This document shows positions 3,654 to 34,242 of a DNA stretch of 64,000 nucleotides, piece by piece. The notes beneath the pieces were generated by a model that saw only the letters and a list, made by a program, of their open reading frames with translations, searched no databases and was not told the DNA's origin. The position numbers were made by a program, and so were the translations under genes. Every line of letters begins with the position of its first letter. The stretch's first letter is position 1. The DNA is taken from assembly GCA_002790095.1 (NCBI GenBank), contig PFUL01000189.1, forward strand, positions 5,206-69,205. The letters are read 5' to 3'. This DNA is from Elusimicrobia bacterium CG_4_9_14_3_um_filter_62_55. GTDB taxonomy: Bacteria > Elusimicrobiota > Elusimicrobia > UBA1565.

Positions 3654-4808
3654 CTATTCCTCTTCGGCGAGTTTTTTTACCCGGAGCGTGGTCTGTTCGC
3701 GGAACTTGCCGAGCCGCTGCAGACGATCCCGCAGGGGAAGCGGGAGATTCGGATCCTTCATCAGTTTCTGAACTTTCGGAGCGAGAGGCCCCACGATGCT
3801 GTCCCAAAATCCGGCGGCGCGGATTTCCTCAAGGACCTTCGGCTTATGCTCCTTCGAGAAGTCCCAATGATCGTCGCGATGGACGGTGACTTCGTATTTT
3901 TTCCCGAAGGCCCGGATATAGTTGAGTTCCTTCAACGCGGCGACGATTTCCTCGCGGACTTCCTCGACCTTCGCCTCGCGTTCCTTTAGGTCTTCCTTCA
4001 TCTTGCCGAACTTATCGACGAGTTTAGAGAGCTTGGCGTCGGATCGGATCGCGGGAACCTCTTCCGGGGATTCCTGCGCGGCGTACAGATGCTTGAAAAC
4101 CGGGCAAAGGGGCTTATAATCGCACCAGTCGCATTTTCGTTCGGAGGGCTTCGGATCGAAGCGTTCGTCCTGAATCTGCTTGGCGGTCGTTACGATCCGT
4201 TCCCGCAGTTCCTTCACCGCATCGCCGCTGCGCCGCCCCGAGGTAAGCGGAGTCTGCGAGGGCAGATGATAAAATGTCAATTTTTCGACCTTCAGTCCGA
4301 GCAGTTCCTCGCAGGCCATCTGATACATCGTCAACTGCGCATCCTGTTCCACGCGGGATTTCGGGATCGCCTTGCCTGTCTTGTAGTCGAGAATCTCCAA
4401 GGCGTCGTCGCCGATCTTATCGATGCGGTCAACGAAGCCCCGAACCGAGACGCCGTCCACTTTCAGCAGAAACTCGTATTCGACGAAGTACGGGAGACGG
4501 AAGGAATCGATGTGCTTCGCGTAATACTCCTCGAGAATACGGCGCCCCTGGGTTTTGTAGTCCTCCTCCTGCTGGGGGCTCTGATAGCCTTCGGAAATCC
4601 AGCGTTTCTCGTAGCGCTCCAATAACTGTTCGAGATTCGGAGGGGGGAGGGTTTGACCGCCGTACAGATATTCCAAGGCGTCATGAACCGTCTTCCCGAA
4701 GGAGAAGAAATGTCTCGGTTTTTCCGGGATCTTGTCGATGTACTTGAACTGCCATTTCTTCGGGCAGTCCAAATACAGATTGATCGAGGAATGAGAGAGC
4801 GGCCGCAT
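3654..4808 (-). CDS. PD-(D/E)XK nuclease family protein (RecB/Cas4-like) with Cys cluster and C-terminal coiled-coil extension
   Basis: N-terminal LYLDCPKKWQFKYID and ILDYKTGK (D-x-K) motifs. A CDWCDYKPLCP cysteine cluster is typical of Fe-S containing Cas4/AddB-type nucleases. An extra charged C-terminal region of about 120 aa follows. Confidence 0.6.
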   Translation of the reverse strand: MRPLSHSSINLYLDCPKKWQFKYIDKIPEKPRHFFSFGKTVHDALEYLYGGQTLPPPNLEQLLERYEKRWISEGYQSPQQEEDYKTQGRRILEEYYAKHIDSFRLPYFVEYEFLLKVDGVSVRGFVDRIDKIGDDALEILDYKTGKAIPKSRVEQDAQLTMYQMACEELLGLKVEKLTFYHLPSQTPLTSGRRSGDAVKELRERIVTTAKQIQDERFDPKPSERKCDWCDYKPLCPVFKHLYAAQESPEEVPAIRSDAKLSKLVDKFGKMKEDLKEREAKVEEVREEIVAALKELNYIRAFGKKYEVTVHRDDHWDFSKEHKPKVLEEIRAAGFWDSIVGPLAPKVQKLMKDPNLPLPLRDRLQRLGKFREQTTLRVKKLAEEE

Positions 4809-13114: not shown

Positions 13115-14632
13115 TCAAGCAGTCTCTTGAGTCCGCGCGACCGCAGTCCCGGCGAGACACAGGAGAAACAACGCCGCTGCGAGAAAATACGCCGCGTTCC
13201 CGGTTTTCGCGTACAACGACCTTCCGGAAGCAGGGGCAAGCTCCACCACAAACGCTCCTCTCTCCCCGAAGGAAAGCCGCTTGCGAATTTTTCCGGAGCG
13301 GTCGATGCCGACGCTGATGCCCGAAGTCGCCGCGCGGAACACGGGGGTTCGGGTTTCCACCGCGCGCAAAACAGCGATACGAAGGTTCTGCTCCGGCATC
13401 TGATTATTGTCCGCCCAAGAATCGCTTGTTTGCAGCACGAACGCGTCCGGAGCGGGCTCGGAAGCGGCCAACCGCCGCGTGAGCCACGGCTTCACCGCGT
13501 CGTAGCAAATCAAGGCACCCAACCGCGTCCCGTTCGGTAGGGTCAGCAGGCGGCCGTGTCCGCGGTGTATCGGATCCATCGCCGGCACGATGTCCTTCAG
13601 GACGGGAAACCAATTCGCGCCCGGCATCCACTCGGAGAACGGCGTCGGATTCAGCTTTTCAGAATGTCCGCCATATCCACCGTCGACCCTGACCAGAACG
13701 GCCGCGTGATGGCGACGAACGATCGCGGTCGTTCCCCGGTACCCGACGATTTCCTTCGTTCGGGTTCCCAGGATGATCGGGACTCGGAACGGGAACTCCA
13801 CCCGCATTGCCGCCGGGAAATCGGTTTCCCACGGCGACCGCTCCTTGCCGTAGGTCCAGACTCGTTCGTAGGTGTTTTGGGGGAAAAGAATCAATTCCGG
13901 GAATTCCGCGAGTACCGAATCCGCCAACTGACGGTACACCGCCAAATTTTGGCCGTAGCGTTCGGGGATCCAGCGCTCCGCATCGGGCACCGAGCCCTGA
14001 AGGACGGCTACGCGCAGGCGCATCCGGCTCTGCGCGTCTTCCACGGCGATCCGCCTCACGCTCCATATCCCGAATACCTCGTTCGCCCCAAGAAAAACAA
14101 GCGCGATCAGCAGAGGTCGGAATCGGCGATAGGAAACGGCATAGAAGATCCCCGCATTTAAACCGTGTACCAGCCAAGAGACGCCGCCCATCCCCAACAG
14201 CGATAAGCTCTGAATCGCCGGGAGATGATCGCTGAGCGCGACCGCCAAATACGAAGGATAAATCTGAGGCCAAAACGCCTCGGCGGCAACTCCGGCGGGC
14301 ACAATGAGCCACGGGAGCCCCGTCCACGCGGCCGTTCCGGCGGCCAAGCCCCAGGGAAGTCCCCAAAACAAAACCAGCGGCGCAGAAGCGAGCACCGCCG
14401 CCGGAGTGCTTATCTTCATCAGCAAAGCCGCAGGGGCGTAAGTCCAATACGCTCCGACCCCCCAATACACCGCTCCAAAGGTCCAGCCGAGCAGGAATGC
14501 CGCGCGCGGCGTTCGCGTCGCCGCCGCATGATAGAGGGGGACAAACGAAATCAAAATCAAAACGCCCCACGCCCCGCCCCAAAACCCCGCGCCGCCGGCG
14601 GCCGCCCCGACGAGCGTCCCGATCACGCGAAC
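13115..14632 (-). CDS. lnt: Apolipoprotein N-acyltransferase
   Basis: N-terminal polytopic region plus C-terminal CN-hydrolase domain (VAVLQGSVP..., ALICYDA...). The start is approximate (GTG 14632); the six-frame ORF to 14689 overlaps the upstream gene. Confidence 0.75.
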   Translation of the reverse strand, partial: VRVIGTLVGAAAGGAGFWGGAWGVLILISFVPLYHAAATRTPRAAFLLGWTFGAVYWGVGAYWTYAPAALLMKISTPAAVLASAPLVLFWGLPWGLAAGTAAWTGLPWLIVPAGVAAEAFWPQIYPSYLAVALSDHLPAIQSLSLLGMGGVSWLVHGLNAGIFYAVSYRRFRPLLIALVFLGANEVFGIWSVRRIAVEDAQSRMRLRVAVLQGSVPDAERWIPERYGQNLAVYRQLADSVLAEFPELILFPQNTYERVWTYGKERSPWETDFPAAMRVEFPFRVPIILGTRTKEIVGYRGTTAIVRRHHAAVLVRVDGGYGGHSEKLNPTPFSEWMPGANWFPVLKDIVPAMDPIHRGHGRLLTLPNGTRLGALICYDAVKPWLTRRLAASEPAPDAFVLQTSDSWADNNQMPEQNLRIAVLRAVETRTPVFRAATSGISVGIDRSGKIRKRLSFGERGAFVVELAPASGRSLYAKTGNAAYFLAAALFLLCLAGTAVARTQETA

Positions 14633-15900
14633 GCCTCTGCGAAGGCCCGGACCCGGGCGAAGATCCCGTCGGTGTTGACGTAATCCCAACGGCCGCTGCG
14701 TCCGAGCAGGAACACGCCCAGCGGTTCGAGTTCCCTTTCCAACGCCGCCCGGTCCCGGTCGAGATCGAGCGTTTGGATCGGATAGGTGCAGTGTTCCCTA
14801 TGAGCGGCAACAAGCCCGATGTCATCCTCCGAACCGAGAATCCCGGCCGCGAGCAAATCACGGATCACACGCCCTTGCGCGTCGGCCTCTTCGCCCTTCA
14901 CGGTAATTTCCGCGACCACGGTGTCCAACCGCGCCGGATCCAACGCGTTCATGAAGGTCAGGCGATAGAAGCTCTCCGGCCCCGCGAAGAACACCCAATG
15001 GCAGTCGCCGAATCTCCGGAATCTGCGTCCTTCCTTCAAACCGACGGCGACGAAGATCGTGTCGTTGAACTTAAAACGGTCTCGCGACGCCTTCCAAGGG
15101 CCCGGCGGAAGGGCGTCGATCAACGACGGGATCGGGATCGTCGAAACGACGCGCTCGGCTTCCAAGCGCCGCCCGCGCTCGCAGCACACGCGCCAACCGC
15201 GCTCCGTTTTTTCGAGGGAGCGAACCGGAACGCCCGTCGCAATCTCGCCTCCAGACGCCTTCGCCACCGCGTCGGGAATCGCGCCGGCTCCGTTCGTCCT
15301 GGGGTAAATGAAGCGCGATTGATAGCCGCGCCCGACGGTTCCGGGGATCAGCGCGTTGCGTACGATTTTCCAGGGCGGCTCGGGTTCGATCTTGTTTTTA
15401 ACGAGCCCCATCGAAATTTCCTGGAGCGGGACGCTCCAAATCTTCCGGTTGTAGGGAAGCATGAAATGCCGCGCGATTCCGTCGCCGAGGCCGTGCTCGA
15501 TCCAATGGTGCAAGTTGCGAAACGGCCGCTCGCCGAACATGGAGGCGCGCAGATACCCCGACACGCACTCCCAGCGGTCCCCGAACGGAAGGTCCGCCAG
15601 ACCGTTCTCGAACGGATAGTTGACCGCCCGCCCGCGATGGTGGACCCGGACGCGCCGCGCGTGCGCGCGATACTCGATGGGCAGCGCGCGGTACTCCGAC
15701 ATGATTGCGGGATCGCGGCTGTAAAACGCATGCGGGCCGACGTCCCAACTCCAATCGCCTTTCGAAATCGTCCGGCAAAGCCCGCCCGTCATTTCGCGCG
15801 ATTCTAAAACGACGGTTTCGACGCCCCGCTCGTGCAACAGCCGCCGCAACTGCAGACCGGCGAGACCGCCGCCCAAAATCACCGCCGGTACGACCGTCAC
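14623..15900 (-). CDS. FAD-dependent oxidoreductase (UDP-galactopyranose mutase / amine-oxidase-like fold)
   Basis: The GTG at 15900 overlaps the upstream TGA (GTGA). Rossmann dinucleotide motif VILGGGLAGLQLRRLL...VLESREMTGG; GPHAFYSRD resembles the UGM GPHIFHT segment. Confidence 0.6.
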   Translation of the reverse strand: MTVVPAVILGGGLAGLQLRRLLHERGVETVVLESREMTGGLCRTISKGDWSWDVGPHAFYSRDPAIMSEYRALPIEYRAHARRVRVHHRGRAVNYPFENGLADLPFGDRWECVSGYLRASMFGERPFRNLHHWIEHGLGDGIARHFMLPYNRKIWSVPLQEISMGLVKNKIEPEPPWKIVRNALIPGTVGRGYQSRFIYPRTNGAGAIPDAVAKASGGEIATGVPVRSLEKTERGWRVCCERGRRLEAERVVSTIPIPSLIDALPPGPWKASRDRFKFNDTIFVAVGLKEGRRFRRFGDCHWVFFAGPESFYRLTFMNALDPARLDTVVAEITVKGEEADAQGRVIRDLLAAGILGSEDDIGLVAAHREHCTYPIQTLDLDRDRAALERELEPLGVFLLGRSGRWDYVNTDGIFARVRAFAEAFA

Positions 15901-27146: not shown

Positions 27147-27174
27147 GGAAGTTCAGTTGATAGGCGCTGGATTT

Positions 27175-27203
27175 GAAAAGTGACAAAGTGCCGGCCTGAC
27201 GCC
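27175..27203. repeat. Diverged REP-like copy B, inverted relative to copy A (hairpin-like pair with a 28-nt spacer)
   Basis: gaaaagtgacaaagtgccggcctgacgcc versus copy C caaaagtgacaaagtgacgccctgacacc. Confidence 0.7.
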
Positions 27204-29444
27204 GGATCGGAAACCGATCCTGAGTTGAACGGCGGTGGAACCGGGTTGCCTCAGTTGGTGAATCAAATCAATGTAGGCGAGCGGATTACCGAGACGGACG
27301 CGTTGGGACACTCACAAATTTACGAGACCCTCGGGAAAAGCGGTCTTAGAAGAATTACGAAGGTCACGAATGCCGCCGGGAACTCGCAAGCATTCGAGTA
27401 CGACGCCGACATCAACCTGAAGTCGCAGACGGACGAATTGGGTCGGAAGACGGCCTTCAGCTACGACGACAAAGGGAACGTCACGGCCGTCGTCGACCCC
27501 TTAGGGAATGTCACTCAAATCGAATATGGGACCCTGAGCCAGGTCACGGCGTTTACCGACCCCCGCTGGAATCGGACGACGGTCACGCTTGACGCAAAAG
27601 GCAACGCGGTGGAGGTGCGCGACCCGCTCAACAACGCTGTACAAGCGAGAAATCTGAGCGACGGCAGGGTGGCGGCGGCAAAAGACCCGCTGGGCCGTGA
27701 GACTTCGTTTACCTACGACGGCCGCGGCGAATTGGCGACGGTCACCGACGCGCTCGGGCGCACGGTGACACTGGAGCGGGACGCGCTCTCGCGAGTGAGG
27801 AAGCAAATCGGACCGGAAGGGCAGGTCGCCTCGTTCGAGTACGACAACCAGGGGAACGTCACGAAGGTGATCGACGCGATGATGGGCGTGACGGCGATGA
27901 CCTACATCCCGGGACGGGAGGGGAGGCTTTTGGAAAGGGTCGTCGACGCGCGGCACGAAGGCACGGCGATCGGGACGACCTTCGGCTACGACGAGATAGG
28001 CCGGCCTACCTCGGTCACGAACGCGGTGGGCAAGACCCTGACGGTACAGTACGACCTCAAGAGCCGGCCCACGACGATCACGACGCGGCGCGGCCATTCG
28101 ATTTCGATCACCTACGACGCATTGGACCGGCCCATCAAGATCACGGCGCCCGAGGGCGACACGACCTTCGTTTACGACGCGGTCGGCGATGTGACCCGCA
28201 TGGCCAAGTACGACGGGTCGTCGGTCGATTTGGTCTACGACGCTCTGGACCGCGTGACGCAGGCGACGCAGAAGCTGCCGGGTGGGTTTACGGCGACGCT
28301 TTCCTACACATTCGACGCGAACGGCAACCGTACGAGCATGAGCACGCCGTGGGGGAGCTTCAGCTACACCTACGACGTGCTGGATCGCGTGACTTCCATT
28401 TCAAATCCTTTCGGGCAGATTATCCAATTCCAGTACGACGCCTTGGGGCGCCGGACGCAGATGAGCTACCCCAACGGGACGAAGACGAATTACTCTTACG
28501 ACCCCGTGGGGCAGATAGCGCAAATCGTGCATATGAAGACGGGCGAACAGACGGCCTTCGCGTTTAAGAACTACGACTACGACCCCTCGGGCAACCCGAC
28601 GGCGATCACCGACACGGCAGGGGCGCATACCTTCACCTACGACGATCTCGACCGGCTCGAGACGGCTAACCACCCGCCCGCGGCGGGGCTGCCGCGCAAT
28701 TCAGAAAGCTTTACCCACGATAAGGTGGGCAACCGGCTTTCGGACGCGGTGCGTACGGGCTACGCCTACGACGACGCGAACCGCATCCAGTCTGATTCGG
28801 CGTATACTTATACGAGCGACGACGACGGGAATGTGACTTCGAAGACCGATAGAACGACCGGCGAGAGGACGACCTTCGTTTACGACAGCGGGAACCGGCT
28901 GATACGGGTCGAGGCTTCGACTTATACGATTGCGTCCTATCAGTACGGTCTTACGGGCGACCGTGTTGAGAAGATCGTGGGCGGGGCGACGACGCGCTTT
29001 GTGTATGACGGGCGCCGCGTGTTGGCGATCTTGGACGCCTCTAATAATCTGTTGGCCTTGTTTACGAACGGGCCGGGAACCGATGAGCCGCTGATTATGC
29101 GTCGCGGCGGGAATGACTACTTCTATCACCAGGATGCGCTCGGGAATGTTAAGGCGTTGACCGATAGCCAAGGGCAGATTGTCGAGACGGTGCAGTACCA
29201 GGCGTATGGGCGGGCGGTGGTCAAGGACGCGATGGGGAATATGCATGCGGCCTCGACGGTGGGGAATCCGTTCCTTTTTGCGTCGAGGGAGTTGGATGCG
29301 GAGACGGGGCTGTACTACATGCGGCAACGGTATTACGACGCGGAGATTGGGAGGTTTTACTCGGAGGATCCAGTAATTGCGGTCAAATTTGTACGCGTTC
29401 TCTCTAAACAATCCGGTTCTCTTCACAGACCCCCTTGGTCTTGA
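27180..29444 (+). pseudogene. 5'-truncated Rhs/YD-repeat protein fragment (reading frame opens inside repeat copy B)
   Basis: Many YD repeats (FEYDADINL, FSYDDKGNVTAV, TYDALDR...). An in-frame TGA lies 2 codons upstream of the first possible start. The canonical ...YYDAEIGRFYSEDP segment then runs out of frame. Confidence 0.7.
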
Positions 29445-29934
29445 ACCAATTAATCGGGGAACCAACTTCAGTGGAACATGTGGCTGCGATCCGAATCAAT
29501 TTGATGGAATTGACTTCAATGGGGTTGACATCTATGAAAACGCAAATTTTGCCAAGCTGTTGCCAAAATGGAACCCTGCGACATTCCCGATTTACGCCCA
29601 GTTTTTTAGGGATGGGGGCTTGTTTGATTATGGGGAAGCGTGGTATCCCGGGGTTAAGGACCCTGAACTCGAGCAACACCAGGGGGCCATTAATGCGCAC
29701 CGTTTTGGGAACTTCAATTTCGGAGTCATGATGGCTGCCTCCGGCTTCCCCGAACAAGAGGCCTTATGGATCGCAGGGTTTGTGCGTCAAGTGAAGGGAA
29801 GAAACCCTGAGAGAGGCGAGGGAAGTACTGGTATCCCATTTGGGATCAAAGCCAAGTATCCCTTTGGAAACATCCCGGGGCCCGCTAAGGACATCCAAAG
29901 CGGATACGATTTTTACCAACGGTGTATCCGATGA
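29377..29934 (+). CDS. Rhs core terminus (NLYAFSLNNPVLFTDPLGL) plus C-terminal polymorphic-toxin domain of unassigned family; +1 frame relative to the upstream Rhs ORF
   Basis: The DPxGL Rhs cleavage motif is reached only after a 1-nt frame change near 29370-29380. A toxin domain of about 160 aa follows. Local GC is lower than the flanks. Confidence 0.55.
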   Translation: MRSNLYAFSLNNPVLFTDPLGLEPINRGTNFSGTCGCDPNQFDGIDFNGVDIYENANFAKLLPKWNPATFPIYAQFFRDGGLFDYGEAWYPGVKDPELEQHQGAINAHRFGNFNFGVMMAASGFPEQEALWIAGFVRQVKGRNPERGEGSTGIPFGIKAKYPFGNIPGPAKDIQSGYDFYQRCIR

Positions 29935-30470
29935 AAAAGAGATTGGGTGCTCCAAAATTGACACAGAAACCAATATGGCGAACCCTTTTCTCATTCATTG
30001 GATTCTGCATCTTGATTTCAGCATTTCTAATTATCGGAGCCGAGCAGATTCTTCAGAGAAGAGAACGATGGGGGGAAGTTTATTCTCCCGCCAGAACCTA
30101 CGTCGTGACGATAATTCACGAGTCTCCGCGGATCGGATTCTTAGGATACGGGGGTGATGGATTAAGCTACTTCCATTTGGACAAGAGGCGATGGTACGTT
30201 GACTGGATACCAGGGGGTGCAAGAATTTTCGGTTCGGACGTCCTTGTCTTGTACGGCCACGTTCTTCCATATGGCATTACTTGGCTCGATGAAAATCACC
30301 TTCAAATTCGCTTACGTTATCCCATTGAATATGAGTACGACTACTACGGAACCAAGGTTAAGATCTATAGGAACAAGCGGAGCACATGGGGTCAGGTAAA
30401 AATTGGTTTCGGAGTTTTAGGCGACGATGAGACATCTGATCCGAGGGAAGTTACGATTGATCCCAGCTAA
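29931..30470 (+). CDS. Putative cognate immunity protein (membrane-anchored)
   Basis: ATG overlaps the toxin TGA (ATGA). N-terminal TM segment FSFIGFCILISAFLIIGA. AT-rich. Position immediately after an Rhs C-terminal toxin. Confidence 0.45.
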   Translation: MKKRLGAPKLTQKPIWRTLFSFIGFCILISAFLIIGAEQILQRRERWGEVYSPARTYVVTIIHESPRIGFLGYGGDGLSYFHLDKRRWYVDWIPGGARIFGSDVLVLYGHVLPYGITWLDENHLQIRLRYPIEYEYDYYGTKVKIYRNKRSTWGQVKIGFGVLGDDETSDPREVTIDPS

Positions 30471-30548
30471 TTCAAATCGGGAAGAGGATGATGGTTAAGA
30501 GGTTGATCTTGAAGTAACTTAAGATTGTGAAATCTTGGTGGAGGCCCC

Positions 30549-31322
30549 ATGTCTTACCAAACCCCATCAAGCGCCCGTTCGATCCCGACGATACCCCTCG
30601 TCAATCGAGCGTTTGAAAAAGCCGTAAGCCGTTTATTAATCACCGCCGCCCTCCTAACGCCCCTCCAGGCGCTAGCAGCCCCTTCATTCATATCCCCCAA
30701 AACCTTCCGCACCCGTCAACTCACAAAAACCCCGCTCACCCTCATCGACATCCGCCCCCCCGACGCCTACAAGAAGGAGCACATCCAAGGTGCCCTAAGC
30801 GTCCCCCTGGAAACCCTCCGCACCTGGCAGCCGCCGTCGAACGCCCCCATCGTCGTCTACTGCGTCTGCCCCAAAGACGAAGAAGCCGCCGCCATCCTGA
30901 TAGAACGCGGGTTCACCAACACGACGGTGCTCGAAGGCCGGTTCGCCGCGTGGAAGAACGCCGGCTACCCCGTCGTCCGCTACGGCCGCGGGGTCGGGGG
31001 GAAGGACCCGCCGCTGGAGCGCATCGACGCGAAACGCGCGAAACCCAAGGTCGAGGACGGTTCCTTACTCCCGGTCGACGTACGACCCGAGGCCGAGTAC
31101 AGAATGGGACGCCTGCCGGGCGCGGTGCACGAACCGCTGGAGCGCATCCGTCTCGCCGTACCTGCGTTTCCAGAGGGAAAGACTCTGCTCGTGTACGGGC
31201 GGGTCGGTGCGCGCGCCAGGGAGGCCGCGAAGACGCTGAGACAGGCGGGCTATGCCGTGACCGAGCTCTCCGGCGGAATCGCCGGTTGGGCCGCGAAGAA
31301 GTATCCGATGGAGGTCGAATAA
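30549..31322 (+). CDS. Secreted tandem rhodanese-domain protein (second domain lacks catalytic Cys)
   Basis: Two rhodanese folds: domain 1 has Cys in VVYCVCPKD, domain 2 has VYGRVGARA (Cys to Gly). N-terminal hydrophobic signal-like region. Confidence 0.65.
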   Translation: MSYQTPSSARSIPTIPLVNRAFEKAVSRLLITAALLTPLQALAAPSFISPKTFRTRQLTKTPLTLIDIRPPDAYKKEHIQGALSVPLETLRTWQPPSNAPIVVYCVCPKDEEAAAILIERGFTNTTVLEGRFAAWKNAGYPVVRYGRGVGGKDPPLERIDAKRAKPKVEDGSLLPVDVRPEAEYRMGRLPGAVHEPLERIRLAVPAFPEGKTLLVYGRVGARAREAAKTLRQAGYAVTELSGGIAGWAAKKYPMEVE

Positions 31323-32720: not shown

Positions 32721-33584
32721 GTGGTTTCCTTTCTCTCTCTCGCCGTCCTAACGACGTCTTTGCTCGCACCGTCCGTTCACGCGCAGCAAAAACCCGACGC
32801 GACCTTCACTCCCGCGATGTTCGAAGCGGCGATGAAGAATCCGAAGCAGTTTACGCTCGATGAAGGATCCGTCGAGATCGTGAAACTTTCCGAAGAGGAA
32901 GCGAAGCAGTATAAACCTACCGACTTCGTCGGCATTCCGAAACCGCCGACCGGGACGGGACCCGGCACGGGACCGACCACGCCGTTCCCCGGCGGCGGCG
33001 GAGACGACACGCTGCGCACGATCGACCAGATCATCAACATCGGCAAGAAGATCTGGGAGATCATCGAGAAGAACAAACCTGTCGTCGACCTGAAAAACGA
33101 CTACGCGACCGCGGTGCCGGAAGGGATCACGCACTGGTCCCAGCTCGAGCGCTGGAACGCTCCGAAAACGACTCTGTACCGTCTCGCGGCGAAAAACGCC
33201 TACGGCATCGAAACCGTCGGAGTCACCTTCGCTGTCATCCGTACCTGGGGCGGGTCCTACAAAGGAAAGGGGAAATTCCTTCACGGCGTGACCGTCGAGC
33301 CGCTGAAAGTCGACGTGCTCTGGGGCTACACGCTGAACATGAACGCGACGATCCCCAGCGTCGTCAACGTCGGAAGCTCCGAAGACCCGATCGCGGCGAT
33401 GACGGTCAAGCTCGGATGGACGATCAAAACCGTCATTAAGGAATCGCAAGGCTCCGGCGTTTACTTCGTTCGAGGCGACGGACAGTTCTCGGACATCGGC
33501 GCTCGGTCGAGCTTCGCGAAATCGAAAGATGGCAAGAATGTTCATAAGAAACTTGAAAAACTCGAGGTTCGCGCGCCTTTCTAG
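32721..33584 (+). CDS. Secreted hypothetical protein
   Basis: GTG start with signal peptide VVSFLSLAVLTTSLLAPSVHA. Pro/Gly-rich linker and a beta-rich C-terminal region. Confidence 0.5.
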   Translation: MVSFLSLAVLTTSLLAPSVHAQQKPDATFTPAMFEAAMKNPKQFTLDEGSVEIVKLSEEEAKQYKPTDFVGIPKPPTGTGPGTGPTTPFPGGGGDDTLRTIDQIINIGKKIWEIIEKNKPVVDLKNDYATAVPEGITHWSQLERWNAPKTTLYRLAAKNAYGIETVGVTFAVIRTWGGSYKGKGKFLHGVTVEPLKVDVLWGYTLNMNATIPSVVNVGSSEDPIAAMTVKLGWTIKTVIKESQGSGVYFVRGDGQFSDIGARSSFAKSKDGKNVHKKLEKLEVRAPF

Positions 33585-33609
33585 AATTAGCTGGGAATTT
33601 TCGACCTAG

Positions 33610-33648
33610 ATCGCCCTCGGGTCTAAGGATCCGGGGGCGATTTATATT
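33610..33648 (+). terminator. Candidate intrinsic terminator
   Basis: 11-bp stem ATCGCCCTCGG/CCGGGGGCGAT (one G-U wobble), a 10-nt loop, then TTTATATT. Confidence 0.4.
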
Positions 33649-33665
33649 GGATTTGACCTGATTTA

Positions 33666-33694
33666 TTGACACTTTTGGAGCGAAATGATAAATT
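33666..33694 (+). promoter_or_regulatory. Sigma-70-like promoter TTGACA-N17-TAAATT (with upstream TG) for the Rieske/cyt b operon
   Basis: Read directly in an AT-rich 175-bp intergenic region, 65 nt upstream of the Rieske start. Confidence 0.4.
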
Positions 33695-33759
33695 AGCTCC
33701 GCTTCCTTGCAGGATAGAATTCCAACACTCAAAAAATCTCTTCATACCTCCCCTAATCA

Positions 33760-34242
33760 ATGGCAAATCCCGTTAAACGCAAAGATTTCCTCTGGATGGG
33801 CTGGGGCGCCTTCGCGGCGTTCCTCGGCGGCGCCGGCGCCGCGACGACCCGATTCTTCGTGCCCAACATCCTTTACGAACCGTCTCAGAAATTCAACGCG
33901 GGAAAGGCCGAAGATTTCCCGATCGGCGTCTCGACCCTGTGGTTCAAACAGCAGCGCGTGTGGATCGTGCGCAGCGCCCAAGGGATCTACGCGCTCTGGG
34001 CGCGCTGCACCCACTTAGGGTGCACGCCCAACTGGTTCATCTCGGAAATGCGCTTCAAATGCCCCTGTCACGGGTCGAACTACAACCCGGCCGGCGACGT
34101 GCTCGCCGGACCGGCTCCGAAGCCGTTGTGGCGCTGCCGCGTCGAGATCACCGCGACGGGCGATCTTGTGATCGATAAGGCTATCCTCGAAAACCGCGCC
34201 GGCGTCCGCGAGAAGGCTCCGTTCTTCGCGGAATACGCGTAA
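33760..34242 (+). CDS. Rieske [2Fe-2S] iron-sulfur protein of a cytochrome bc-type complex
   Basis: CTHLGC and CPCHGS Rieske boxes. N-terminal TM/Tat-like region. Confidence 0.85.

Follow-up and report, generated by a model that had tools for sequence, protein, structure and literature searches.

An acquired Ntox44-variant toxin/immunity cassette is probably joined to a broken Rhs gene in an Elusimicrobia bacterium from groundwater

Introduction

Orphan or displaced rhs-CT/immunity modules occur in Enterobacteria, including E. coli, Salmonella, Serratia and Dickeya. In each, a fragment of the core end is combined with a low-GC tip of foreign origin and an immunity gene, and the composition break falls in the conserved region that encodes DPxGL. 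A related layout is found in the TcC-type proteins of ABC toxin complexes, which consist of an RHS core of ~680 aa and a hypervariable toxin region; their YD repeats begin at the first residues, and a core-end autoprotease motif is followed by a short toxin tip. An immunity gene downstream typically accompanies antibacterial Rhs toxins rather than insecticidal TcC proteins. By the effector–immunity logic of type VI secretion systems (T6SS), exported or membrane-anchored immunity proteins mark toxins that act in the periplasm.

Ntox44, or 'Bacterial toxin 44' (PF15607), is a toxin domain described as all-alpha and found at the C-terminus of RHS carriers (Zhang et al. 2012). The literature, including Zhang et al. 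2012, describes it as a predicted RNase, and no immunity family is assigned to it in that work. The only experimental report that we found on an Ntox44 domain concerns TseR, a PAAR-Ntox44 effector of Yersinia pseudotuberculosis; as cited in a review (PMC13577199), TseR is reported to be a divalent-cation-dependent enzyme that cleaves single-stranded RNA.

Here we describe a locus of an Elusimicrobia bacterium in which a low-GC module with a tip related to Ntox44 follows a Rhs core gene. The window, that is, the whole stretch of DNA that was analysed, is 64 kb long.

Results

A low-GC cassette at the 3' end of a Rhs core gene

The features of the locus are collected in Table 1. The 754-aa core ORF opens immediately after a stop codon (TGA, 27174–27176) and is annotated in three NCBI metagenome-assembled genomes (MAGs). 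It matched Pfam RHS_repeat in 12 stretches (261.8 bits) and YD_repeat_2x in 13; positions 393–717 of the 1261-position RHS_core model aligned with aa 34–363, and positions 1–51 of the 76-position TIGR03696 model with aa 673–732. Searches with Pfam, TIGR and NCBIfam profiles detected no N-terminal trafficking or delivery domain (PAAR, prePAAR, signal peptide and the like), and the protein has neither a hydrophobic N-terminus nor a domain ahead of the repeats. The core may be truncated; TcC-type proteins, too, normally combine a core of ~680–750 aa with a tip after it. No other YD-repeat sequence was found in the 64-kb window by tblastn, and no secretion, Tc or TcA/TcB-like gene was found among the window's 27 ORFs scanned against Pfam. 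A carrier partner or a full-length rhs gene could sit beyond the 64-kb window.

Table 1 Features of the locus, in coordinates of the window.
Feature	Coordinates	Strand	Basis or content
Rhs/YD-repeat core ORF, frame A, 754 aa	27180..29444	+	Pfam, TIGR03696 and RHS_core matches
Low-GC patch of ~1.2 kb, the acquired cassette	29350..30545	.	Windowed GC, GC3
Junction, frame A to A+1	29363..29379	+	Read from sequence; TIGR03696 gap; GC drop
Tip ORF	29377..29934	+	...NLYAFSLNNPVLFTDPLGL, then the 163-aa tip
Last 22 codons of the Rhs-associated core, frame B, ending NLYAFSLNNPVLFTDPLGL	29377..29442	+	TIGR03696
Toxin tip, 163 aa and stop, divergent Ntox44-superfamily domain by sequence comparison	29443..29934	+	Profile, HMMER and hhalign searches
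Putative immunity gene, 179 aa	29931..30470	+	ATGA overlap; N-terminal TM helix

Base composition changes at the end of this gene. GC calculated over 300 nt was 0.45–0.53 across 29300–30650 and 0.55–0.70 on both sides, and at 60-nt resolution the drop ran from ~29350 to ~30545. Third-position GC (GC3) was 0.53 in the tip and 0.48 in the putative immunity gene, against 0.79 in the Rhs core and 0.74–0.81 in six neighbouring genes, and it broke exactly at the core/tip junction, with the breakpoint at 29350–29370. The patch extends from the frame junction up to a rhodanese gene, which starts at 30549. The core-end piece ahead of the tip (29377–29442) is already low in GC (0.43–0.48) and therefore came in with the cassette. 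The patch is horizontally acquired and compositionally foreign to its host. The original prediction had called the tip and the next gene AT-richer than the rest of the window, had read them as a horizontally acquired toxin/immunity module and had proposed a windowed GC calculation; the composition data agree with it. Recombination may have brought the cassette to its present place. Scans for promoters and terminators, repeats and Rfam families around the cassette gave nothing above background. The 754-codon ORF is intact and its codon usage is host-like, and therefore any decay would be recent.

The tip lies in the +1 frame relative to the core

The 754-aa ORF ends in ...GRFYSEDPVIAVKFVRVLSKQSGSLHRPPWS and a stop codon, and its last 23 codons, after ...GRFYSEDPV, are out of frame. 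DPLGL and the tip are encoded in the +1 frame relative to the core. The match to the Rhs-associated core model TIGR03696 is divided between two frames: positions 1–51 fall in one and positions 57–76 in the other (aa 3–22 of the tip ORF), with about five positions (52–56) absent between them. Directly 5' of the first possible start (TTG 29377), a TAA at 29374–29376 closes frame B. Thus the tip does follow DPLGL, as had been predicted, and spans 163 aa (29443–29931), but it is not in frame with the Rhs core to which it had been assigned.

The junction sequence was identical, without any indel, in five contigs from five samples (L001–L005), and this agreement among five assemblies rules out an assembly error. 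Programmed +1 frameshifting is unlikely: no homopolymer run or known +1 slippery site with a slow codon was found in 29377–29442, and reading of the sequence revealed no stimulatory element at the right distance from the run GTC AAA TTT GTA. The missing model positions look like the trace of an imprecise join, not of a conserved recoding site. Taken together, the frame break, the TAA and the core without a delivery domain indicate that no Rhs–toxin fusion would be made from the locus as it stands. Separately, a GGAGGA at 29363–29368 lies 8 nt ahead of TTG 29377, from which the tip may be translated alone.

The tip belongs to a rare, motif-altered clade of Ntox44

The tip had been reported to match no toxin family and had been put forward as a candidate for a new one. 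Profile searches place it in PF15607 instead, an outcome that the original prediction had itself named as refuting it. The Pfam Ntox44 model matched the tip over profile positions 40–103 of 104 with 18.3 bits (E 0.003), a score just below the Pfam gathering score of 24 bits. When the tip alone was searched with phmmer against 1.8 billion representatives, only 14 matches were returned; they included P0004, P0005, P0008, P0009, P0012 and P0013 (E 2.6e-9 to 3.9e-4), each of which scores 47–62 bits on PF15607. A profile search retrieved 210 proteins, and among the 120 listed all but two were already annotated as PF15607, the two being the tip itself and its clade-mate P0006. Finally, hhalign aligned the variant clade with a canonical Ntox44 profile over 114 columns at a probability of 98.4% (E 5e-15). 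On this sequence evidence, the tip represents a rare and divergent branch within Ntox44, a known family, and its homology extends over the full length of the domain.

A word-indexed search of 5.8 billion proteins with the tip as query returned only the tip itself or near-identical copies. Sequence searches of the PDB, run with the tip, with the immunity protein and with profiles of the clade and of canonical members, gave nothing meaningful, and no solved structure of the Ntox44 family was found there for comparison; Foldseek matched the tip model to no PDB entry with E < 1. The AlphaFold2 model of the tip consists of seven helices and no strands (pLDDT 73, pTM 0.72), which fits the all-alpha fold given for Ntox44 (Zhang et al. 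2012). The tip shares with Ntox44 the GNxxxG motif, the invariant Asp, the AG and PxG positions, the C-terminal GxxYY helix and the order of helices.

Of the three signature motifs of Ntox44, the tip retains one and carries replacements for the other two. GNxxxG, which is invariant in every alignment, is kept as GNFNFG. The DxK motif (canonical WDYK) reads F-D-Y-G, with the Asp kept and the Lys replaced, as is also the case in P0003, P0006 and P0007. The DxxxD motif (canonical PYGDDPxDQ) reads PFGNIPGPAKD. Across the variant clade the two motifs become [FY]DY[GA] and P[FY]GNIP, respectively, with N-I-P invariant. D62 is likewise invariant in the clade, as are a histidine (H86) and an arginine (R115), both of which canonical members lack. 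The clade is rare, with four members found; a metagenome scan for further members yielded three loci, one of them a duplicate of L006 and none closer to the window. GNIP, DY[GA], H86 and R115 are invariant in the three other members, which come from unrelated samples, and these substitutions are therefore features of the clade, not signs of decay. The original prediction had also suggested looking for homologous tips on other Rhs, CdiA or MafB proteins; P0003 carries the variant tip fused in frame to a Rhs core.

A putative membrane immunity protein follows the tip

The ATG of the 179-aa ORF overlaps the stop codon of the tip (TGA) as ATGA. Its product contains one strong hydrophobic segment by hydropathy, at aa 19–37 (nt 29985–30041), with six basic residues before it. 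The overlap and the N-terminal TM segment both stand as they had been described. The protein is predicted to be a single-pass inner-membrane protein with its N-terminus inside and a C-terminal domain of ~140 aa that is predicted to be beta-rich and to face the periplasm. In a single-sequence AlphaFold2 model (pLDDT 46.6) the TM helix alone was confident. Searches of Pfam and NCBIfam gave no family for the protein, and near-identical copies were all that a word-indexed search of 5.8 billion proteins returned. Its position and architecture suggest a toxin/membrane-immunity pair in which it would be the putative cognate immunity protein.

We further analysed the partner genes of other Ntox44 toxins. 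A single family accounted for 38 of the 55 genes downstream of such toxins; this DUF5412-like family was built here from those 38 loci. Its genes lie directly after the toxin gene and often overlap it, and all 38 members carry a lipobox or an anchor (a lipobox in 24). These exported lipoproteins resemble the 179-aa protein in having an N-terminal anchor or export signal and a domain of ~100–140 aa, and in their place directly after the toxin. The resemblance in sequence is slight: a C-terminal W..L.I...Y pattern aligns weakly, the DUF5412-like HMM gave the 179-aa protein 5.7 bits (2 of 5000 shuffles scored at least as high), hhalign gave a probability of 3–6% (P 0.006–0.015), and the SPDG...GATT signature is absent from the protein. 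We treat this as a weak hint and do not accept the 179-aa protein as a DUF5412-like homologue. Within the variant clade, polytopic membrane proteins follow the toxin in P0003 (locus L007) and P0006 (locus L006), the only two relatives with contigs that extend past the toxin. When counterparts of an enterobacterial Ntox44 locus were sought in E. coli, none matched.

Since proteins of this architecture are also encoded beside canonical Ntox44 toxins, the toxin, when delivered, would act on an envelope target that it reaches from the periplasm, and the immunity ectodomain would neutralise it there. Against this reading, the RNase activity reported for TseR implies a cytoplasmic target.

Discussion

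We consider it fairly probable that the locus combines a broken Rhs gene with an acquired Ntox44-variant toxin/immunity cassette. In the mechanism that we propose, recombination would have joined a foreign cassette of ~1.2 kb to the 3' end of a Rhs core gene already resident in a groundwater Elusimicrobia bacterium. The cassette would have brought the last ~22 codons of a Rhs core, the toxin tip and the immunity gene. The toxin would be a rare, divergent clade member of the all-alpha Ntox44 superfamily, and its immunity protein would be anchored in the inner membrane, with a periplasmic ectodomain that blocks the toxin there. The carrier would be defective on account of the +1 junction, the TAA in the tip frame and a core that has neither a partner nor a trafficking domain at its N-terminus. 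We regard the locus as probably decaying or orphaned, and it may not function; of its parts, the immunity gene has the best prospect of staying useful.

This arrangement recalls the enterobacterial orphan rhs-CT modules: in neither case can a complete toxin be expressed from the fragment. Unlike those modules, it has no full-length rhs gene upstream within the 64-kb window and is attached out of frame to a short core of 754 aa. TcC-type proteins are similar in length and layout; the present locus differs from them in having no TcA/TcB-like genes in the 64-kb window, an out-of-frame tip and an immunity gene downstream. Ntox44 itself offers the closest comparison for the tip, but the cation-dependent RNase chemistry of TseR is not to be assumed for it.

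That chemistry bears on where the toxin acts. It is rather doubtful that the tip is a cytoplasmic RNase, as reported for Ntox44/TseR, with the membrane protein either not its immunity or blocking entry rather than catalysis. Such a role would follow the literature, which calls Ntox44 a predicted RNase and, as cited in a review (PMC13577199), reports TseR to be a cation-dependent cleaver of single-stranded RNA; by our own reasoning, D62, H86 and R115 would also suit a metal-independent RNase site. However, the conserved partners of canonical Ntox44 are exported or membrane-anchored in 38 of 38 cases, and the acidic DxxxD motif, assumed to be the likeliest cation-binding element, is absent from the tip.

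The altered motifs could alternatively mean that the tip is a catalytically dead relic and that the immunity gene alone is maintained, as an orphan protecting against attacks by neighbours. The out-of-frame fusion, the loss of the canonical K and DxxxD residues and the absence of a delivery system from the window would all accord with a relic. We judge this improbable, because the same substitutions are invariant in the three clade-mates and the tip of P0003 is in frame with its Rhs core.

A working Rhs toxin is very improbable. It would require the ribosome to shift by +1 near 29377–29388 (or the break to be an assembly artefact), yielding a fusion of ~915 aa that delivers the tip after cleaving itself at DPLGL. 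In favour of it, the Rhs-associated core motif has its two halves present and adjacent, the two long ORFs are otherwise intact, and the ATGA by which the immunity gene is coupled to the tip ORF suggests that the tip frame is translated. Nevertheless, the same sequence appears in five independent assemblies and in three MAG annotations, 29377–29442 holds no homopolymer, slippery or stimulatory signal, ~5 TIGR03696 positions are missing at the junction, and profile searches detected no delivery domain in the core. A new polymorphic-toxin family unrelated to those described, to which the score below the Pfam gathering score, the word-indexed search that gave the tip itself only, the absence of PDB relatives by sequence or Foldseek and the two absent signature motifs would point, has next to no chance and is by sequence comparison already refuted at the homology level, given single-sequence HMMER matches to bona fide Ntox44 proteins (best E 2.6e-9), a profile–profile probability of 98.4% over the whole domain and the shared GNxxxG core, invariant Asp and helix order.

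Returning to the acquired Ntox44-variant cassette, the importance of this locus alone is limited. It represents a rare motif-altered branch of a toxin family named in 2012, and it records a case in which a swapped Rhs tip ended up out of frame in a groundwater bacterium of a candidate phylum. The regular presence of exported lipoproteins or membrane proteins beside canonical Ntox44 toxins is hard to square with the RNase label in the literature. Only tentatively do we suggest that the variant clade is a functionally distinct offshoot of Ntox44, in which the presumed metal-binding acidic set (the K of DxK and the DDxxD-like stretch) has given way to Asp, His and Arg and which, as Ntox44 toxins in general would, attacks the envelope from the periplasm rather than acting as a cytoplasmic RNase; we propose an envelope target because the partners conserved beside these toxins are membrane proteins or exported lipoproteins. 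If this is true, the family-wide 'RNase' label of Ntox44 would need revisiting, and the DUF5412-like immunity family, previously unassigned, would become tied to Ntox44.

Identity of the toxin tip

The locus is a divergent form of a known toxin type, Ntox44 (PF15607), on a defective carrier. The original prediction had recognised no toxin family from sequence for the 163-aa tip that follows DPLGL and had proposed a candidate new polymorphic-toxin family; profile searches placed the tip in Ntox44. Scanned directly, the tip matched the Pfam model at 18.3 bits (E 0.003, profile positions 40-103 of 104), under the gathering score of 24, and a word-indexed search of 5.8 billion proteins returned no match except the tip itself. 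With the tip as sole query, exhaustive HMMER scanning of 1.8 billion cluster representatives returned 14 proteins at an E of 1e-3 or better. Among the ten of these 14 matches that were scanned against PF15607, P0004, P0005, P0008, P0009, P0012 and P0013 scored 47-62 bits, P0010 narrowly passed at 25.3 bits, the best match P0003 (42% identity, an in-frame Rhs tip) was sub-threshold, and P0006 and P0007 gave no match. A profile built from these sequences retrieved 210 proteins; among the 120 listed, all are PF15607-annotated except the tip and P0006. hhalign aligned the clade formed by the tip, P0003, P0006 and P0007 with 29 canonical Ntox44 sequences across the whole domain (114 columns; probability 98.4%, E 5e-15). 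Judged from these profile matches, the tip is homologous to Ntox44, and the claim of a new family thus fails on the refutation criterion that the original prediction had set. The AlphaFold2 model of the tip (83-sequence alignment, pLDDT 73, pTM 0.72) is all-helical, in agreement with the description of Ntox44 as 'all-alpha' (Zhang et al. 2012). Foldseek against the PDB and profile searches of PDB sequences found no solved structure for the family.

Ntox44 is defined by the motifs DxK, GNxxxG and DxxxD (Zhang et al. 2012), which read WDYK, GNF[NH][FY]G and PYGDDPxDQ in our alignments of canonical members. The tip and its three clade-mates instead carry [FYW]D[YF][GA], GN[FIV]NFG and P[FY]GNIP, so that the Lys and both Asp of the canonical motifs are replaced. 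The clade has invariant residues of its own: a His (H86) three positions ahead of GN and an Arg (R115) within IAGxxR. The same substitutions occur in proteins of unrelated samples, including one that forms the in-frame tip of an Rhs core; on alignment evidence they mark the clade and do not reflect decay. Members of this rare clade are few: four were found in the protein collections, and 241 million metagenome records, scanned for this purpose, yielded none closer to the tip. The canonical 'DxxxD' within PYGDDPxDQ (alignments A1 and A4) is itself Asp-rich and DDxxD-like and lies in an all-alpha domain; it recalls the Mg2+/diphosphate-binding motifs of isoprenoid enzymes.

Organization of the locus

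The proposal of a horizontally acquired toxin/immunity module, markedly AT-richer than its surroundings, was supported by composition. GC is 0.45-0.53 over ~29300-30650 versus 0.55-0.70 around it (300-nt windows; 0.62 for the whole window), and 60-nt windows set the start of the drop at 29340-29370 and its end at ~30545, just short of the rhodanese gene. GC3 is 0.53 in the tip and 0.48 in the immunity gene, as against 0.79 in the Rhs core and 0.74-0.81 in six neighbouring genes. The AT-rich patch is genuine and has sharp edges; a host-like core and a foreign tip therefore join within a few tens of bases. Beyond the rhodanese gene, at a distance of 1 kb downstream from the cassette, is a Y1 transposase gene, and a repeat scan around the cassette found no repeat structure or flanking repeats joining the two.

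Features of the locus, its surroundings and the Ntox44 loci used for comparison
Feature	Coordinates	Strand	Remarks
Lnt-like apolipoprotein N-acyltransferase	13115-14686	-	LNT_N + CN_hydrolase
Polytopic membrane protein, 502 aa	25599-27107	+	Directly upstream of Rhs ORF; no Pfam family, faint EpsG match only
Rhs core ORF, 754 aa	27180-29444	+	Pfam RHS_repeat 261.8 bits, 12 stretches; TIGR01643 in 13 stretches
Tip ORF, 185 aa	29377-29934	+	(M/L)RSNLYAFSLNNPVLFTDPLGL, then 163-aa tip
Immunity ORF, 179 aa	29931 (ATG) to 30470	+	Overlaps tip TGA as ATGA
Rhodanese gene	30549 (start)		PIP84388.1 in CG (Crystal Geyser) series Elusimicrobia MAGs
IS200-like Y1 transposase, 317 aa	31532-32485	-	PF01797, E 5e-10; RAYT-like; GC 0.615, host-like
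287-aa protein	32721-33584	+	Signal-peptide-like N-terminus, Gly/Pro-rich linker; no Pfam family
Second, smaller low-GC dip	33500-33800		0.44 (300-nt window); intergenic, upstream of Rieske/cytochrome b genes (33760 onward)
Genes downstream of Ntox44, examples from loci L008-L062	L021:4210-4581; L037:4207-4602; L008:4317-4769
Pseudomonas agarici pair (L008/L009)	4001-4769		112-aa Ntox44 ORF + anchored partner gene, between GGDEF gene and aroQ

The original prediction held for the ORFs, the ATGA overlap, the N-terminal membrane segment and the AT-rich patch; it overlooked that the reading frame breaks between the Rhs core and the DPLGL/tip sequence, the latter being in +1 relative to the core. 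The core frame reads ...YYMRQRYYDAEIGRFYSEDPV and continues IAVKFVRVLSKQSGSLHRPPWS to a stop at 29442-29444, and in the tip frame a TAA (29374-29376) directly precedes the first possible start, TTG 29377. TIGR03696, the NCBIfam Rhs-associated core model, is divided accordingly: positions 1-51 match core ORF aa 673-732 and positions 57-76 match tip ORF aa 3-22, with positions 52-56 absent at the junction. An assembly error is ruled out, since the junction is spanned, collinearly with the window and without an indel, by five contigs (L001-L005) of ENA and Logan assemblies from five different samples. Four of them are 100% identical to the window; the fifth, L001, differs over 28531-31298 by six SNPs in 2768 nt, all downstream of the tip (30133 T>C, giving I68T in the immunity gene; the other five in the rhodanese gene), and the 1.4 kb covering the Rhs 3' end and the tip carries none. 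Annotations of three NCBI MAGs include the identical 754-aa product; by exact-sequence match it is PIP84385.1 of the CG series Elusimicrobia MAGs. Reading of 29377-29442 revealed no homopolymer run or recognisable +1 recoding signal. Because the frame break and the GC break fall together, the simplest reading of the junction is imprecise recombination inside conserved core-end sequence.

The core ORF opens right after an in-frame TGA (27174-27176), 72 nt past the stop of the unrelated 502-aa membrane-protein gene; it lacks a hydrophobic N-terminus and any domain ahead of its YD repeats. RHS_core model positions 393-717 of 1261 correspond to its aa 34-363, and tblastn found no further YD-repeat sequence in the window. 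In Pfam scans the other large ORFs of the window are respiratory, lipid, cell-wall and nitrogen-metabolism genes, with no T6SS, PAAR, VgrG or Tc component among them. The carrier is short and can be called truncated only tentatively, because TcC proteins normally consist of a ~700-aa core and then a tip; no partner is visible within the window.

As the sequence reads, an Rhs-toxin fusion cannot be made from this locus. The tip ORF could be translated on its own, given that GGAGGA (29363-29368) sits 8 nt before TTG 29377 and that gene callers call the 185-aa product in other assemblies. With no carrier there would be no delivery; the ATGA-coupled immunity gene could still protect against relatives deploying the same toxin. 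We accordingly interpret the locus as an orphan cassette or one broken recently.

Immunity protein and Ntox44 partner genes

In the putative immunity protein a single strong hydrophobic segment (aa 19-37) follows six Lys/Arg and zero acidic residues, and in the AlphaFold2 model residues 15-50 form a helix, with high confidence over ~aa 11-40 (pLDDT 78-96). By the positive-inside rule, it is predicted to be single-pass with a cytoplasmic N-terminus and ~140 aa facing the periplasm. It matches no Pfam or NCBIfam family, and a 5.8-billion-protein collection held no homologues except copies at ~99% identity.

No immunity family is given for Ntox44 in Zhang et al. 2012. From 52 genomic and several metagenomic Ntox44 loci we took the gene that follows the toxin ORF. 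One BLAST-linked family accounts for 38 of 55 downstream genes, with weak affinity to Pfam DUF5412 (28 and 24.5 bits) and a conserved SPDG...(C)GATT...W..L.I pattern. All 38 members begin with an export signal (lipobox-like in 24, a hydrophobic anchor only in 14) and share the architecture of the immunity protein, a membrane anchor or export signal plus a predicted ectodomain. Several unrelated downstream genes, including those after P0003 (L007) and P0006 (L006), encode polytopic membrane proteins. For homology of the immunity protein to the 38-member family there is no more than a hint: the family HMM scored it at 5.7 bits (2 of 5000 shuffles scored at least as high), hhalign gave P 0.006-0.015 and a probability of 3-6%, and pairwise searches found nothing significant. 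In databases, Ntox44 proteins are often short ORFs of 106-140 aa that stand alone, so orphan Ntox44/partner pairs seem common; near the 112-aa Pseudomonas agarici ORF there is no Rhs, PAAR or VgrG gene.

Discussion

In T6SS and Rhs effector-immunity pairs, exported immunity proteins (Tsi1, Tsi3, Tli, TsiV3) mark toxins that act in the periplasm. By this logic, the most likely mode of action is that the toxin would attack an envelope target from the periplasmic side and the immunity ectodomain would block the attack. Provided that the protein is made and delivered, we give a periplasmic or envelope target, by analogy, about an even chance. The Lnt-like gene in the window is consistent with a diderm host making triacylated lipoproteins.

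The periplasmic reading conflicts with the literature, in which Ntox44 is a predicted RNase (Zhang et al. 2012 among the sources) and TseR is reported, in a passage of a review (PMC13577199), as a cation-dependent ssRNA-cleaving enzyme. Cation-dependent chemistry appears doubtful for this tip because its acidic motif is lost, and exported partner proteins fit the RNase label poorly; under the same proviso, we consider an RNase unlikely, and an inactive protein or another activity takes up the remainder of our estimate. As a speculation, the DDxxD-like stretch of canonical members, together with exported partners, would fit a lipid-linked substrate in the envelope. That Ntox44 toxins across the family are paired with exported proteins is a more interesting lead than the locus itself.
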